Of a stretch of 32,000 nucleotides of DNA, positions 8,514 to 31,421 are shown in pieces. Within the stretch, counting starts at the first letter, position 1. Each line of letters starts with the position of its first letter. The notes under the pieces are model-generated. The model worked only from the letters and a program-made list of their open reading frames with translations, was not told the origin of the DNA and made no database searches. Source of the stretch: Microcystis aeruginosa NIES-843 (GTDB taxonomy: Bacteria > Cyanobacteriota > Cyanobacteriia > Cyanobacteriales > Microcystaceae); contig NC_010296.1 in NCBI RefSeq assembly GCF_000010625.1, positions 840,001-872,000 of the forward strand. The letters run 5' to 3'. The translations under genes were made by a program, and so were the position numbers.

Positions 8514-8724
8514 TAGGGCTGGCTGAATAAATCTAAAAACCTTATCCAACAAGGTTTTTAGACCTTTTGGAAATCAAAAAGTACCGGATGTGGGAGTGAT
8601 CAGGGGGCAAATTCAGGGACTTTTTCCCTGAAAATTGGGTAATTGACCCCCTCAAAATCAGTAAAACCCTACACCCTACACCCTACACCCTGCCCCCAGG
8701 AAAAACTTTTTGCCGCAAACCCTA
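8514..8724 (+). mobile_element. MITE, 211 bp, with ends TAGGGCTGGCTGAATAA ... TTTTTGCCGCAAACCCTA and an internal CCCTACA heptamer run
   Basis: Imperfect terminal inverted repeats. Full or partial copies occur at 14573, 14798, 25712 and 29118. The ends match the IS at 25932-27628. Confidence 0.7.
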
Positions 8725-9587: not shown

Positions 9588-9680
9588 AACTATTAGCCGT
9601 CTTTTTTCTCCCTGTCTCCTGTCTCGGAGTCTCCTGACTTGAAAGAGGGTGTAGGGTGTGGGGTGATGGGGAAGTGGGGG

Positions 9681-9802
9681 AATTATGAATTATGAATTAT
9701 GAATTATGAATTGGGGTATGGGGAGAACAAATAAAAATAATCTCCTGTCTCCTGTCTCCTGTCTCCTGATAACTGATAACTGATAACTGATAACTGATAA
9801 CT
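9681..9802. repeat. Three abutting heptamer tandem arrays: (AATTATG)x4, (TCTCCTG)x4, (GATAACT)x5
   Basis: Direct reading: 9681-9708, 9741-9768 and 9768-9802. The last unit ends 5 nt before the GTG at 9808. Confidence 0.95.
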
Positions 9803-9807
9803 GAATA

Positions 9808-14572: not shown

Positions 14573-14766
14573 TAGGGCTGGCTGAATAATGGTAAAACCC
14601 TTGTTGGTTAAGACTTTTAGAGTTTTTGTAAATCAAAAAGTACCAGATATGGGAGTGATCGGGGGGAAAATTCAGGGACTTTTTCCCTGAAAATTAGGTA
14701 ATTGACCCCTTCAAAATCGGTAAAACCCTACACCCCACACCCCACACCCCATACCCTGCTCTAGGA
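14573..14766 (+). mobile_element. MITE copy of the same family as 8514, 3'-truncated
   Basis: Collinear with 8514-8700 (TAGGGCTGGCTGAATAA...AAATTCAGGGACTTTTTCCCTGAAAATT...heptamers) and diverges after CCCTGCTCTAGGA. Confidence 0.65.
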
Positions 14767-21398: not shown

Positions 21399-21752
21399 CT
21401 AAAAATTGTCAAACTTATTAATGATGTCTTGAATTTGCTGCGCTGTGATGTCTGTTTGGTTAGATTTGGCATAGATGAGGAGCATCAAAACACAACCATT
21501 GTCTTTAAGTTGATAGATAACACGATAGCCGCTACTTTTGCCCTTTTGAATATCGCTGTTTTTGAGGCGAACTTTAAAGACAGTGTAGCCTATTCCTGGT
21601 ATTTGATCGCCGATGAATTTGCCTATCTGAAGGTCATCAATTAGAGGTTGTAGGTCAGTACGAATGCTCCGATAGCGTTTGGCGAGGGTGCGAAGTCGAT
21701 CCTTGAATTCATCAGAGAAAAGGAGCTTAATAGAGGGAATTTCTTCAGTCAT
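21399..21752 (-). CDS. Type II toxin, RelE/ParE superfamily (copy 1)
   Basis: 117 aa. FKVRLKNSDIQKGKSSGYRVIYQL...LMLLIYAKSNQTDI signature. Overlaps the upstream antitoxin gene by 8 nt. Confidence 0.8.
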   Translation of the reverse strand: MTEEIPSIKLLFSDEFKDRLRTLAKRYRSIRTDLQPLIDDLQIGKFIGDQIPGIGYTVFKVRLKNSDIQKGKSSGYRVIYQLKDNGCVLMLLIYAKSNQTDITAQQIQDIINKFDNF

Positions 21753-22083
21753 CTATGCCATCCCAGAGTTCAGAGATGGGATGTACTTTGCCTTCTTTAG
21801 CTTGCTGAAGAGAAATACAAAGACTGGTGAGGATGAGTTCTTTTGGTTCGTCGTCAGGGTCAGTGGGTGGAGTGAGGATATTACGCGATACTAGCAATTG
21901 GTAGAAATCATCGAGTGCCATTCCCGTTAGTTCGGCTGCTTGTTCAAATTGAAGGCGTTGCTGCTGATAGAGCATGATAGCGATTTCCGTGAGCATTTGA
22001 GCTTCAGTCATTTGTACTGTTTGCAGAAGTTTAGAGGGAAGGATGAGGTTCATAGAGGTTTCATTAAGTGGCAGTAACTTCAT
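21745..22083 (-). CDS. UPF0175-like antitoxin (copy 1)
   Basis: Preferred ATG is at 22083 (MKLLPLNE...). The track start at 22110 lies inside the R repeat. EAQMLTEIAIMLYQQQRLQFEQAAELTGMALDDFYQLL resembles UPF0175. Confidence 0.7.
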   Translation of the reverse strand: MKLLPLNETSMNLILPSKLLQTVQMTEAQMLTEIAIMLYQQQRLQFEQAAELTGMALDDFYQLLVSRNILTPPTDPDDEPKELILTSLCISLQQAKEGKVHPISELWDGIDD

Positions 22084-22090
22084 TGTATCG

Positions 22091-22181
22091 CCATGAAAAG
22101 GAAACCACAAAAGTAGGCTAAATTGTTTCTAAAAATACCATAAATACCCCTTCAATCAATCTTGAAGGGGTTTATTTTTTT
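22091..22181 (+). repeat. R repeat copy 4 (short form)
   Basis: CCATGAAAAGGAAACCACAAAAGTAGGCTAAATTGTTTCTAAAAATACCATAAATACCCCTTCAATCAATCTTGAAGGGGTTTATTTTTTT. The brnA stop (22172-22174) lies in the T-run. Confidence 0.9.
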
Positions 22182-23112: not shown

Positions 23113-23466
23113 CTAAAAATTGTCAAACTTATTAATGATGTCTTGAATTTGCTGCGCTGTGATGTCTGTTTGGTCAGATTTGGCATAGATGAGGAGCATC
23201 AAAACACAACCATTGTCTTTAAGTTGATAGATAACACGATAGCCGCTACTTTTGCCCTTTTGAATATCGCTGTTTTTGAGGCGAACTTTAAAGACAGTGT
23301 AGCCTATTCCTGGTATTTGATCGCCGATGAATTTGCCTATCTGAAGGTCATCAATTAGAGGTTGTAGGTCAGTACGAATGCTCCGATAGCGTTTGGCGAG
23401 GGTGCGAAGTCGATCCTTGAATTCATCAGAGAAAAGGAGCTTAATAGAGGGAATTTCTTCAGTCAT
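23113..23466 (-). CDS. Type II toxin, RelE/ParE superfamily (copy 2)
   Basis: Identical to 21399-21752 except for one nucleotide (N98D). Confidence 0.8.
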   Translation of the reverse strand: MTEEIPSIKLLFSDEFKDRLRTLAKRYRSIRTDLQPLIDDLQIGKFIGDQIPGIGYTVFKVRLKNSDIQKGKSSGYRVIYQLKDNGCVLMLLIYAKSDQTDITAQQIQDIINKFDNF

Positions 23467-23797
23467 CTATGCCATCCCAGAGTTCAGAGATGGGATGTAC
23501 TTTGCCTTCTTTAGCTTGCTGAAGAGAAATACAAAGACTGGTGAGGATGAGTTCTTTTGGTTCGTCGTCAGGGTCAGTGGGTGGAGTGAGGATATTACGC
23601 GATACTAGCAATTGGTAGAAATCATCGAGTGCCATTCCCGTTAGTTCGGCTGCTTGTTCAAATTGAAGGCGTTGCTGCTGATAAAGCATGACAGCGATTT
23701 CCGTGAGCATTTGAGCTTCAGTCATTTGTACTGTTTGCAGAAGTTTAGAGGGAAGGATGAGGTTCATAGAGGTTTCATTAAGTGGCAGTAACTTCAT
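23459..23797 (-). CDS. UPF0175-like antitoxin (copy 2)
   Basis: Identical to 21745-22083 except for two nucleotides (one silent, one I to V). ATG at 23797. Confidence 0.7.
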   Translation of the reverse strand: MKLLPLNETSMNLILPSKLLQTVQMTEAQMLTEIAVMLYQQQRLQFEQAAELTGMALDDFYQLLVSRNILTPPTDPDDEPKELILTSLCISLQQAKEGKVHPISELWDGIDD

Positions 23798-23804
23798 TGT
23801 ATCG

Positions 23805-23866
23805 CCATGAAAAGGAAACCACAAAAGTAGGCTAAATTGCCTCTAAAAATACCATAAATGCCCCTT
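23805..23866 (+). repeat. R repeat copy 6 (short form, truncated within the hairpin)
   Basis: CCATGAAAAGGAAACCACAAAAGTAGGCTAAATTGCCTCTAAAAATACCATAAATGCCCCTTAA, then unrelated sequence. Confidence 0.85.
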
Positions 23867-25711: not shown

Positions 25712-25929
25712 TAGGGTTTGCGGCAAAAAGTTTTTCCTGGGGGCAGGGTGTGGGGTGTAGGGTGTAGGGTGTAGGGTTTTAGCGATTTTGAGGGGGTCAA
25801 TTACCTAATTTTCAGGGAAAAAGTCCCGGAATTTTCCACCCGATCACTCCGGGATCTGGCACTTTTTGGTTTCCAAAAAGTCTAAAAGTCTTAGCCAACA
25901 AGGTTTTTAGATTTATTCAGCAGACCCTA
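25712..25929 (-). mobile_element. MITE copy (218 bp, reverse orientation), abutting the IS at 25932
   Basis: TAGGGTTTGCGGCAAAAAG...GGTGTAG heptamers...TTTATTCAGCAGACCCTA is the reverse complement of the 8514 type. Confidence 0.7.
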
Positions 25930-29117: not shown

Positions 29118-29230
29118 CAACTTTTGACTAAAAAGTGCCAGCGATTGGAGCGATCGGGGGGAGAATTCAGGGACTTTTTCCCTGAAAATTGGCTAATTGA
29201 CCCCCTCAAAATCGGTCAAACCCCACACCC
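29118..29230 (+). repeat. MITE remnant (central part of the 8514 family), host site of the group II intron
   Basis: AAAAAGTGCCAGCG...GAATTCAGGGACTTTTTCCCTGAAAATTGGCTAATTGACCCCCTCAAAATCGG...CCCCACACCC. The heptamer run resumes at 30016-30036 after the intron. Confidence 0.65.
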
Positions 29231-30015
29231 GTTACAGTAGAGCAGGAAGTCGCCTTCCCACCCCCTGCTTCAAAACCGGACTTACGACTTTCGCCGTATC
29301 CGGCTCCTGAGTAACTAGGCTACTGTCATTAGTAGAATAATAATGGGAATTATTATTTCCTTGTCTATTCAACCCTCTTGGCTGTATCCCCACCAGACAA
29401 GATTGTTGGTTTTAGGGCGTATATGACCGTTGATTGTTGCTTAGACTTCCTAGTTACCCGTCCTTTGTCAGCATATCTTTGATATTACTCAAAGCCTTGG
29501 CTTTTAAGGACATCCTCTCCCTCTATTGACTTGCGGATGGTTTCCTACTGCCCCGAACGGGCAGAGTCAATCAGGGTTACTTCGTTCCCTATAACCATTG
29601 GTTGAACCCTTAGGATGATACTGTCCACAACAGAGTAACGGGAATGCCTTACTGATAGTGGTATGAGCTATCAGCCCCAACTCTGTTAACTTTTGTTTCG
29701 AGCCTGTCAGCCTTTTGGCTCGTGGGTGTTGACGATGGTTAATTCGTATCTTCGCCCCAGGGCTATCCATAGGTTCTGGCTCAACGGGTTTCTGATTTAG
29801 GCTATCAGATACCGCTTTTTTTTCCTCGCTCACTACCTCAGATGTACCAAGTCTAAAGCAGCAGGAAATGCCGTCACTCTAGGCATCTAGAGGACAGGAC
29901 TAAGGTTATTACTAACCCGCACCTGTAGGGTTATAAAGTTATCAAGGTACTACATTTACCAAGCGGCTAATCCTCTAAACGTCTTACTGTCTAGTTTCTA
30001 GCCAACGAATCGCAC
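29231..30015 (-). mobile_element. ORF-less group II intron (785 nt)
   Basis: On the minus strand the 5' end is GTGCG (30015-30011). Domain V is GAGCCGGATACGGCGAAAGTCGTAAGTCCGGTTT (29306-29273), with the AGC triad, a GAAA loop and a 2-nt bulge. A domain VI-like hairpin has a GCGA loop and an unpaired A 8 nt from the ...GTAAC 3' end. Only a short AT hairpin occupies the domain IV position and there is no RT ORF. Confidence 0.8.
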
Positions 30016-30127
30016 CACACCCTACACCCTACCCCGTTAAGACAGCGCCGGAGTTGGCGGCAGGGAGAGCTAGTCCGAGCATTTGTACTAAATTTTCCAA
30101 GACACGCTGTCAATCCAGTACACTTGT

Positions 30128-31105
30128 TCAGCTTGAAATCAAAGCTCCTCCACAACTGGAACCGCTGCCAGCAGTGCAACCGTAGCAATAGGAAGCGGTT
30201 TGTACCTCTGCAATTAGCTCTAAAGTACCCGCTTGTAATAAATCCGGCAGGGTTAATTTTTGGCCTTGACTGGTGCAAGCGGCCCGATCCTCCATCTGAT
30301 TAAAATCGCAGTCATAGATATTACCCAAATAATCAATGGAAAGCTGATTACGACACATCAAATGCTCGATAGTATCGCCATTAAAATAGTCTTCGAGGAA
30401 TTGAAGATAGGGTTGATAGAGTTGCCGGTGTTCCAGATGGAAGCGTGTCCTTCCGACGGGTAGGTTAGTGATAGTAAATAGATTGTTAAAAGAAATATTA
30501 AAATGTTCTTGCAAGAACTTTTTGTAATCCCGTGTTAGGGATAGTTGATCCGGTGTGAGAGAAAAATTATCTGACTTAGGAATCTGGGGATTATAGACTA
30601 AATCCACAATCAAATTCGGCTCTTGAGCGTAGCCGAGACGGTTTAACCATTGTAAAGCGGCGATTGATCGGTCATAGACTCCCAGACCGCGCATTTTATC
30701 CACATTATCGGCAAGATAACAGGGTAAAGAAGCCACCACCCGCAACTGATGGCCAGCGCAATATTCAGGAATATCAGTAAATCCTTTCTCGAAATAAATA
30801 GTTAAATTCGAGCGCACAATTACCTGTTTCCCAGCTTTTCTAGAGATTTCCACAATCGGCTTAAAACCGTAGAGCATTTCCGGGGCACCGCCGGTCAGAT
30901 CGACGGTTTTAATTTGGGGAAATCTTTCGATCAGTTCGATAATTTGTTCGCACACTTCTGGAGTCATTTCTTCGGAACGACCTGGACTAGCTTCCACATG
31001 ACAATGGCTACAGGCAAGGTTACATCTTTTCCCCAAATTAATTTGCAGAACCGAGATTTTTTGCTTAGTTAAAGGAGTTTTTAGTTTCTCAACAAAAGGA
31101 GTCAT
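30128..31105 (-). CDS. arsS: Arsenosugar-biosynthesis radical SAM protein ArsS
   Basis: 325 aa. Radical SAM cluster motif CNLACSHC near the N-terminus and a Cys-rich C-terminus CYGCTAGSGSSCGG. Adjacent to arsM. Confidence 0.8.
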   Translation of the reverse strand: MTPFVEKLKTPLTKQKISVLQINLGKRCNLACSHCHVEASPGRSEEMTPEVCEQIIELIERFPQIKTVDLTGGAPEMLYGFKPIVEISRKAGKQVIVRSNLTIYFEKGFTDIPEYCAGHQLRVVASLPCYLADNVDKMRGLGVYDRSIAALQWLNRLGYAQEPNLIVDLVYNPQIPKSDNFSLTPDQLSLTRDYKKFLQEHFNISFNNLFTITNLPVGRTRFHLEHRQLYQPYLQFLEDYFNGDTIEHLMCRNQLSIDYLGNIYDCDFNQMEDRAACTSQGQKLTLPDLLQAGTLELIAEVQTASYCYGCTAGSGSSCGGALISS

Positions 31106-31110
31106 GGGAG

Positions 31111-31229
31111 AGTAAACAGTAATCAGTAAACAGTAATCAGTAAACAGTAATCAGTAAACAGTAATCAGTGAACGGTAAACATTGAACAGTAAACGGTAAA
31201 CAGTAATTAGTAAACAGTAAACAGTGACC
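31111..31229. repeat. Heptamer array, 17 units of AGTAAAC/AGTAATC type
   Basis: Direct reading. Alternating units form a 14-nt super-repeat in the first 8 units and are degenerate afterwards. It starts 6 nt upstream of the arsS ATG. Confidence 0.95.
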
Positions 31230-31243
31230 AATAACTAATCAAT

Positions 31244-31390
31244 GATAACTGATAACTGATAACTGATAACTGATAACTGATAACTGATAACTGATAACTG
31301 ATAACTGGTAACTGATAACTGATAACTGGTAACTGGTAACTGATAACTGATAACTGGTAACTGATAACTGGTAACTGGTAACTGATAACT
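31244..31390. repeat. Heptamer array, 21 units (14 GATAACT plus 7 GGTAACT)
   Basis: Direct reading, perfectly phased. It uses the same GATAACT unit as the array at 9768-9802. Confidence 0.97.
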
Positions 31391-31421
31391 GAGGGATCGA
31401 ACTTGTCTCGACGCTGCTTTT

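Follow-up and report, generated by a model that had tools for sequence, protein, structure and literature searches.

What is the 785-nucleotide (nt) segment that interrupts a run of GGGTGTR heptamers beside the arsS gene of Microcystis aeruginosa NIES-843, and by what route did it arrive there? We addressed this question in a 32,000-nt stretch of NC_010296.1 (positions 840,001 to 872,000, hereafter the window), in which the segment occupies positions 29231–30015 and reads on the minus strand. [quoted passage not shown] We assign a probability of roughly 85% to the interpretation that the segment is a group II intron, ORF-less but complete in structure, which falls in the chloroplast-like (CL)/IIB lineage and belongs to a small family of Microcystis elements retrohoming into heptamer tracts of the form (GGGTGTR)n. 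Coordinates refer to the window unless given as intron positions, where position p equals 30016 minus the window coordinate; sequences collected for comparison carry L numbers.

Boundaries and termini

The extent of the element is fixed by natural empty alleles. In seven Microcystis contigs (L001 and L003–L008), the spacer between arsS and the DUF3143 gene is exactly 785 nt shorter and reads ...GGGTGTAGGGTGTGGGGTGTGGGGTTTG..., without a target-site duplication (TSD) and with a boundary uncertain by one shared G only. The uninterrupted heptamer run that the initial annotation had obtained by excising the segment on paper thus exists in nature. The arsS locus of L010 is likewise empty, with one heptamer fewer.

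On the minus strand, the 5' junction at 30015 reads ...GGGTGTAGGGTGTG|GTGCGATTCG... and the 3' junction at 29231 reads ...CUACUGUAAC|GGGTGTGGGGTTTG (also written ...GCUCUACUGUAAC|GGGTGTGGGGTTTG...). The termini at these exact insertion boundaries, GUGCG (30015) and ...AAC (29231), fit the group II consensus of 5' GUGYG and 3' AY. Rfam covariance models for group II introns, proposed as a check by the initial annotation, returned RF00029, which describes domains V and VI, at 29231–29308 on the minus strand; it scores 55 bits, where the gathering score is 40 (E 2e-8 over the 32-kb window). The alignment spans model positions 1–77 in full and stops exactly at 29231, and it is the sole Rfam match above gathering score in the window. 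At relaxed thresholds, the plastid domain V model RF04356 also matches (41.7 bits), as does part of the domain I model group-II-D1D4-2 (29802–29869, 26.7 bits, E 0.005, below gathering score). The unconstrained minimum free energy (MFE) of the whole intron corresponds to a z of -5.1. The 5' end, domain V, domain VI and both boundaries are all found where the initial annotation had placed them.

A covarying six-domain fold

A scan of metagenomes with the first 25 nt of the intron recovered Microcystis copies together with complete ORF-carrying introns of other cyanobacteria. Three of the latter, L141 (2.50 kb), L142 (2.51 kb) and L136, share the 5' end and have unrelated exons; L144 (Fremyella) and L146 were added from plasmid records and a look-up of the intron-encoded protein (IEP). 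With these five relatives as the comparison set, domains I–III of seven sequences were aligned with MAFFT, and a hand-derived helix set was tested for covariation. The resulting IIB-type fold comprises 126 pairs, with 88.1% of cells paired compared to 36–46% when the 3' partners were slid by 1–3 columns; the former value is inflated, because the sequence on which the helices were drawn is itself part of the alignment. Two-sided changes give a sturdier measure, and these occur at 52 pairs versus 6–22 in the slid controls. None of 500 shuffles matched the observed pairing values. The unconstrained MFE structure of all 785 nt independently recovers helices Ia and d2, the hairpin of exon-binding site 1 (EBS1), domains II and III, the domain IV stem, and domains V and VI.

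Domain I (29580–30015, intron 1–436) is delimited by covariation across the seven sequences and by the partial group-II-D1D4-2 match. It contains helices I(i) (7–12/430–435), Ia (13–18/46–51 and 22–26/37–41), Ib, the Ic stems, Id(i) (240–244/408–412), d2 (294–299/312–317) and d3 (333–340/374–383); the d3 hairpin (341–348/358–365) ends in a 9-nt terminal loop that holds EBS1. The tertiary strand alpha (UAUAACC, intron 81–87, 29929–29935) pairs with alpha' (GGUUAUA, intron 420–426, 29590–29596); four of the seven pairs are compensatory, and 98% of cells are paired. The loop position beside alpha, intron 88 (29928), is C, T or A among copies that are otherwise 99–100% identical. A canonical 11-nt GAAA-tetraloop receptor can be read from the sequence, with zeta, its 5' strand, as UAUGG (intron 245–249, 29767–29771) and its 3' strand as CCUAAG (intron 402–407, 29609–29614). 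The helices flanking this receptor covary, and the loop of domain V is GAAA.

Domain II (29519–29576, intron 440–497) is recovered by the MFE structure, its basal helix partly conserved and its distal part Microcystis-specific. Two-sided changes occur in domain III (29460–29511, intron 505–556) at six of six pairs of the basal helix and four of six of the distal helix. Domain V (29273–29306, intron 710–743) is 34 nt long, with the AGC triad and a 2-nt bulge, and is the region matched by RF00029 and RF04356. In domain VI (29233–29270, intron 746–783), a hairpin with a GCGA loop, the RF00029 alignment places the bulged branch-point adenosine at A778 (29238), 8 nt from the 3' splice site. Judged by these features, the element appears to keep every ribozyme component for splicing and reverse splicing.

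Loss of the ORF from domain IV

In the relatives, an IEP of ~580–610 aa with RVT_N, RVT_1, GIIM and HNH domains begins ~600–625 nt into the intron; these reverse transcriptase (RT) and maturase-type domains are absent from the element itself. Compared to solved RTs, the relatives' IEP scores 397 bits with T.el4h (T. elongatus, CL1), 129 with LtrA and 125 with IIC RTs. No RT-like ORF occurs in the element, and a tblastn search of it with the relatives' IEP gave no match. Together with the covarying six-domain fold, this bears out its description as a non-autonomous, ORF-less group II intron.

Domain IV (29311–29457, intron 559–705) is nonetheless larger than first described. The initial annotation had seen only a short AT hairpin there; the hairpin exists (29335–29360), but it lies within a 147-nt domain that has a 9-bp covarying closing stem (559–567/697–705) and remnants of an ORF. 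The stem is GUAACUAGG/CCUAGUUAC here, GUGAUAAGG/CCUUAUUAC in L141 and AUGAUUUGG/CCAAAUCAU in L142. A DIVa-like 5' part and the first few codons can be aligned with the relatives, the start codon having changed from AUG to AUA near intron 592–596, and a remnant of the stop-codon region, recognisable just before the 3' strand of the stem, aligns with L141, L142 and L144. Only ~90 nt, AT hairpin included, separate the two remnants. These alignments indicate that the element derives from an ORF-carrying ancestor and that almost the whole IEP gene in domain IV was deleted.

A spurious 88-aa ORF lies in domain I (29567–29833, minus strand). On other copies it has been called a 'hypothetical protein', as in myaer102_47720 (NIES-102) and EWV50_13150 (an M. 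aeruginosa metagenome-assembled genome). These entries are annotation artefacts, yet serve as handles for locating copies.

A degenerate relative of 1129 nt with RT-domain fragments is found at L143 3501–4629 (Nostoc sp. UHCC 0926 plasmid pn1, NZ_CP117772.1). Its 5' exon (...GAGGAGCGGTGTGAGGTGAAAGT|) resembles domain V of another group II intron, so that L143 is probably a twintron.

Pairing with the heptamer tract

Complementarity between the intron and its exon is by itself uninformative here, as nearly all dinucleotide shuffles of the intron hold 6-mers able to pair with GGUGUG or GGGUGU. The refutation test offered by the initial annotation, an absence of detectable pairing between EBS and intron-binding site (IBS), therefore has no power, and our EBS assignments rest on loop position and covariation. 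EBS1 (CAUACC, intron 351–356, 29660–29665), in the 9-nt loop, pairs with IBS1 GGUGUG at exon positions -6 to -1. The homologous loop of the relatives pairs with their own exons: CAAGCAU/GUGCUUG in L142, GCAGU/ACUGU in L136 and UUCUG/CAGAA in L144.

EBS2 is placed by homology and covariation at ACACC(C), intron 287–292 (29724–29729), and EBS2a, by the positional rule of PMC8643678, at C285 (29731). The ACACC core (287–291) is single-stranded between the covarying stems 278–283 and d2 and pairs with IBS2 GGUGU (-13 to -9). Equivalent pairings are GUCUA/UAGGC in L142, UGUCA/UGGCA in L136 and CCCGGA/UCCGGG in L146, and this position in L144 pairs with its own exon too. In IIB1 and IIB2 introns, a strictly Watson-Crick EBS2a–IBS2a pair is needed for DNA integration and not for splicing (Monachello et al. 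2021, PMC8643678), and the authors of that study argue that an ORF-less intron retains it only while selected for mobility. The pair is C285–G(-14) here and C-G, A-U, U-A and C-G in L142, L144, L136 and L146, i.e., Watson-Crick in five of five introns.

The 5'-exon target consequently spans 30016–30031 on the minus strand, comprising IBS1 (30016–30021, -1 to -6), IBS2 (30024–30028, -9 to -13), IBS2a (30029, -14) and an invariant A(-15) and T(-16) (30030–30031). On the 3' side, the first exon nucleotide, G at 29230, is a candidate IBS3, as G(+1) occurs in every 3' exon read from an intact copy. Opposite it in the coordination-loop strand GAAUUAA (271–277) is U274, a tentative EBS3 candidate; few relatives differ at +1. 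Two other assignments were rejected. ACCCUAC (intron 85–91, complementary to GUAGGGU) as EBS2 overlaps alpha and a stem, includes the variable position 88, and conflicts with the homology-based placement at 287–291, while ACACCC as an EBS1 pairing with -7 to -2 is in fact EBS2. In sum, EBS1, EBS2 and EBS2a lie in their expected loops, match the GGGTGTR tract and covary with the exons of the relatives.

Occupied and empty target sites

Further copies were gathered from the metagenome scan and from look-ups of the spurious 88-aa ORF. We found 10 distinct occupied Microcystis contexts, representing at least nine loci with unrelated upstream flanks, and all ten read TAGGGTGT-R-GGGTGT-R|GTGCG. The 3' exons of intact Microcystis copies all start with G (GGG where the sequence is long enough). 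To this extent the heptamer tract is a homing site, as the initial annotation had supposed: unrelated loci are entered in a single register. Its further suggestion that every copy of the host repeat is a potential target is too broad. In ~0.41 Mb (redundant) of sampled Microcystis DNA, 91 empty positions meet the IBS2a, IBS2 and IBS1 pairings, but T(-16)A(-15) is present at just 15 of them compared to all 10 occupied sites (Fisher one-sided p = 1.7e-7), and only registers with this dinucleotide are used. No RNA partner for it was found in the intron; the conventional explanation would be that the helper protein reads T(-16)A(-15).

Intact copies are 98.6–100% identical. There are two sublineages, and in one of them, the L135 type, the zeta receptor strand is non-canonical. 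Presence of the intron at arsS varies between near-identical strains. AP019314.1 (M. viridis NIES-102), 99.3% identical to window positions 1–21105 (L002/L158), carries a 100% identical intron at the same arsS position. At ~5.06 Mb of AP019314.1 (L164 9730–12838), a distance of ~380 kb from arsS, two copies share a single tract with three heptamers (21 nt) between them, and the target motif precedes each. One of these is intact and 99.9% identical. The other, upstream copy is broken twice, by an element of 87 bp whose terminal inverted repeats (TIRs; AAGCTTAGACGCA/TGCGTCTAAGCTT) are perfect and which, inserted at intron position 171, is the sole unambiguous MITE that we encountered, and by a DDE_Tnp_1 insertion sequence (IS) flanked by a 17-nt duplication of intron 246–262. 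The identical two-copy arrangement with 21-nt spacing is found in an independent metagenome. Insertion of an ISL3-type element after intron position 140, or of an IS630-like element of ~1.1 kb after position 115, has split copies at arsS and at other sites (L009 3686–4040 and L132; L134 3411–4555 and L139), and the L170 copy has internal deletions; the family is being eroded by IS insertions. Taken together, the copy identity, the shared register, the double tract and the presence/absence polymorphism at arsS imply recent site-specific retrohoming by an RT supplied in trans, followed by decay.

One arrangement departs from this pattern. L165 106–1673 (ENA ERZ28668926 NODE_36548) contains two full copies head-to-tail with zero spacer (...CTACTGTAAC|GTGCGATTCG...), whereas in L167, which belongs to that study too, an identical 5' flank is followed by a single copy. 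As retrohoming needs an IBS, the dimer is not a product of it; it may stem from an assembly cycle and so be an artefact, from cDNA copied off circular intron RNA, or from recombination.

Source of a putative helper protein

Several findings weigh against a family that is mobile in Microcystis with the aid of a protein supplied in trans. The closest ORF-carrying ribozymes, which come from filamentous cyanobacteria, are 55–60% identical in domains I–III, and none is a cognate. The sampled Microcystis DNA, including ~60 kb of the NIES-102 chromosome, yielded no IEP gene by tblastn, with coverage of well under 10% of a genome; of more than 7,900 IEP matches, the best 120 include no homologue labelled Microcystis, and the names of protein clusters pointed to none. 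Within the ribozyme, EBS3 and delta-delta' could not be fixed, the EBS1 pairing contains a G-U, and the L138 site has a mismatch at -1. Copies of the L135 type may be inactive, and transcription, splicing and mobility of the element are themselves read from sequence.

Other searches for the helper gave similar results. No Microcystis IEP was found in plasmids and viral contigs by pattern and alignment. The intron itself retrieved only short 5'-end matches from plasmids, in Nostocales. A domain V pattern scan of genome contigs showed the core to be common across phyla, with no Microcystis contig among the matches listed. Three multi-contig IEP clusters considered as Microcystis helpers (P0083, P0075 and P0082) all come from other organisms.

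The family could accordingly be an orphan that has no cognate IEP-encoding intron in Microcystis and either self-splices unaided or uses a heterologous 'driver' or free-standing RT, similar to C.te.I1 but mobile. The lack of an IEP in the sampled DNA and the distance to the nearest ORF-carrying ribozymes speak for this, as does the metagenome scan, in which the copies that the exact 5' 25-mer finds on Microcystis contigs are all ORF-less. Apart from the small fraction of a genome sampled, two published observations argue the other way. In M. aeruginosa NIES-843, seven group II RTs have been reported, and a set of six, 97–99% identical, are fused to an McrA/HNH domain (PMC8934634). Furthermore, bacterial ORF-less introns are rare and almost always occur alongside related IEP-encoding introns, C.te.I1 being the sole exception (PMC4424553). 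We consider an orphan family unlikely and a helper resident in Microcystis plausible.

A more specific proposal, which we also regard as doubtful, is that a lineage without its former IEP now holds on in Microcystis solely by parasitising a heterologous 'driver' RT, and owes its survival to specialising on a heptamer repeat that renews itself by slippage. If this is correct, the several in-register sites per tract would account for tandem multi-insertions such as the two copies 21 nt apart, and the zero-spacer dimer of L165 would hint at a target-independent route, e.g., cDNA from circular intron RNA.

The host repeat and passive spread

The tract belongs to a repeat whose nature bears on how the copies were distributed. 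Its downstream part (29130–29230, minus strand) and the heptamers at 30016–30035 form one module of ~125 bp, which in the arsS copy runs from the first heptamer to ...CTGGCACTTTTT. Copies ~90% identical lie at 8593–8696, 14635–14749 and 25753–25850 and on many other Microcystis contigs; the window has four copies, and BLAST gave 52 hits across the Microcystis DNA sampled. Within this modular family, the arsS module has an internal 13-nt inverted repeat (AAAAAGTCCCGGA/TCTGGCACTTTTT), but no TIRs were found at its ends and no TSD is evident around the aligned copies; longer copies of the repeat are bounded instead by a ~20-nt direct repeat, AAGTAGGGTTTGC.G.AAAAAGT. The initial designation as a MITE remnant thus holds insofar as the host is a short, non-coding, multi-copy repeat, but it shows none of the TIRs and TSDs expected of a MITE, and the arsS module is complete rather than a remnant. 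The term dispersed intergenic repeat suits it best; because its status as a MITE is not established, neither is the notion of one transposon parasitic on another.

Could the intron be an immobile fossil, its copies spread passively inside a host repeat that relocated or underwent duplication, or through recombination from tract to tract? The repeat is abundant, the arsS, L135 and L165/L167 copies share the repeat module on their 3' side, and many copies are decaying through IS and MITE insertions and deletions, all of which such passive spread would accommodate. We nevertheless find it improbable. Seven strains have the host module without the intron at arsS, and the intron therefore arrived after the module. 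The 3' exons differ (L131 GGGAGATTAAAT; L166 GGGTGTGGGGTGTGGGGTGTGGGGAG; L164B ...GGGAAGAATAAAC) and the upstream flanks are unrelated, while every insertion is in the single register set by the EBS pairings and the TA dinucleotide, and one tract holds two copies 21 nt apart. Finally, the idea that the element is no intron, only a chance domain V-like hairpin inside a 785-bp insertion of unrelated origin (a piece of a MITE or IS, for example), can appeal to domains V–VI alone reaching an Rfam gathering score, the domain I model match being sub-threshold, but is effectively refuted by the RF00029 match, the empty alleles and the covariation of 52 pairs in a full-length architecture homologous to bona fide IEP-carrying introns, and equally by the lack of TIRs or a TSD and the presence of the receptor and tetraloop, alpha-alpha', the EBS loops and the 5' and 3' consensus ends.

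The arsS locus and a proposed mechanism

The upstream gene on the same strand (30128–31105, minus) is a true arsS, as the initial annotation had it, with 408 bits to TIGR04167 against a cut-off of 300; it is preceded by arsM. The intron begins 112 nt downstream of the arsS stop codon, in sense orientation and between convergent genes. Exact matches to the ArsS sequence are found in AP019314.1, HE973781.1 and several bloom metagenomes. No terminator-like or promoter-like site was found in the spacer between arsS and the intron, so that read-through from arsM-arsS is the simplest source of intron RNA; the lack of such sites fits read-through and is no proof of it.

In the mechanism that we propose for the retrohoming family, intron RNA would be made by read-through from arsS, and splicing would be aided by a group II reverse transcriptase/maturase encoded elsewhere. 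The lariat-protein particle would then enter a tract by reverse splicing into its top strand, the RNA pairing across -14 to -1 and probably +1, and the helper protein would add recognition of T(-16)A(-15). If it bears an HNH domain, as the relatives' IEPs do, the helper could nick the bottom strand and so supply a primer for the cDNA. One specificity would give access to many sites, even several per tract, as the target is tandemly repeated and is found in a dispersed repeat family as well.

Heptamer arrays of other kinds are found in the neighbourhood. The arsM-arsS spacer (31111–31392) contains two long arrays of perfect period, AGTAAAC x16 and ATAACTG x23, which yield a spurious 'SYQLPVI' repeat ORF, and there are many more arrays of other units in the window, e.g., GAATTAT, CTGATAA and TCTCCTG at 9680–9804. 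The collinearity of the window with AP019314.1 ends near 21.1 kb, and IS copies at that point occupy different places and orientations; given this and the 99.3% identity, the window comes from a sister strain of NIES-102. Just beyond, a two-gene cassette (a UPF0175-family ORF of 112/121 aa and a 117-aa ORF) is duplicated ~1.7 kb apart, at 21399–22110 and 23113–23824; its two copies flank a BrnT/BrnA toxin-antitoxin pair in AP019314.1.

Comparison with known systems

A non-exhaustive literature search found no published description of this intron family or of homing into heptamer tracts. There is precedent for introns homing into repeated or mobile DNA (RmInt1, PMC1802570; IIC introns, PMC4424553), and the element leaves the understanding of group II intron mechanism unchanged. 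It does offer a compact and clean example in an ecologically important bloom-former, with natural empty, filled, doubly filled and decayed alleles, and its fully specified 16-nt target and intact EBS2a pair could aid the study of 'safe' repetitive landing sites and of helper RT sharing. In practical terms, it is unannotated in AP019314.1, attracts spurious 'hypothetical proteins', breaks short-read assemblies, and provides presence/absence markers between near-identical Microcystis strains.

TeI3 of Thermosynechococcus elongatus comprises 17 ORF-less CL/IIB1 introns with a DIVb deletion, for which mobilisation in trans by the IEPs of TeI4 'drivers' has been demonstrated (Mohr et al. 2010, PMC2882425). 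Like TeI3, the Microcystis element is a cyanobacterial ORF-less IIB intron whose ORF was deleted from domain IV with N- and C-terminal remnants left behind; it is multi-copy and mostly intergenic, has good EBS/IBS pairing at each site, and keeps EBS2a–IBS2a. In addition, the IEP of its relatives is closest to the T.el4h RT, although the ribozyme itself, at 55–60% identity, is not close to the relatives compared. The two systems differ in that the helper IEPs of T. elongatus are known and reside in the same genome, whereas no Microcystis helper was found in the sampled DNA, and in that TeI3 has split into six EBS families with different targets, whereas the Microcystis element keeps a single specificity for a heptamer repeated across the genome. 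With EcI5 and Th.e.I3 (PMC8643678), it shares a 5-bp EBS2–IBS2 helix and a Watson-Crick pair between the base two nt 5' of EBS2 and the exon base 5' of IBS2; it differs from them in the additional T(-16)A(-15), which is invariant, and in encoding no IEP.

As to the choice of landing site, RmInt1 of Sinorhizobium meliloti (ISRm2011-2; PMC1802570) likewise has its homing site in a repeated element, such that targets scale with the copies of the host. However, RmInt1 is another intron type with its own endonuclease-minus (En-minus) IEP and a bona fide IS as target, while the Microcystis host is a short non-coding repeat of unproven mobility and the target a tandem heptamer. Class C (IIC) introns (PMC4424553) also use a repeated intergenic landing motif (terminators, attC) and so avoid gene damage, but they read a DNA stem-loop and lack EBS2, in contrast to the EBS1/EBS2/EBS2a pairing of the Microcystis element to a linear repeat. 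C.te.I1 of Clostridium tetani (PMC4424553) would become the appropriate comparison should the family have no Microcystis IEP to serve it; it is single, non-proliferating and alternatively spliced, whereas the Microcystis family shows recent multi-site insertion. In mechanism and structure, the element is TeI3-like, an ORF-less, probably CL/IIB intron that would depend on an RT in trans, and what is particular to the Microcystis family is its niche, which provides many sites per genome without EBS divergence.

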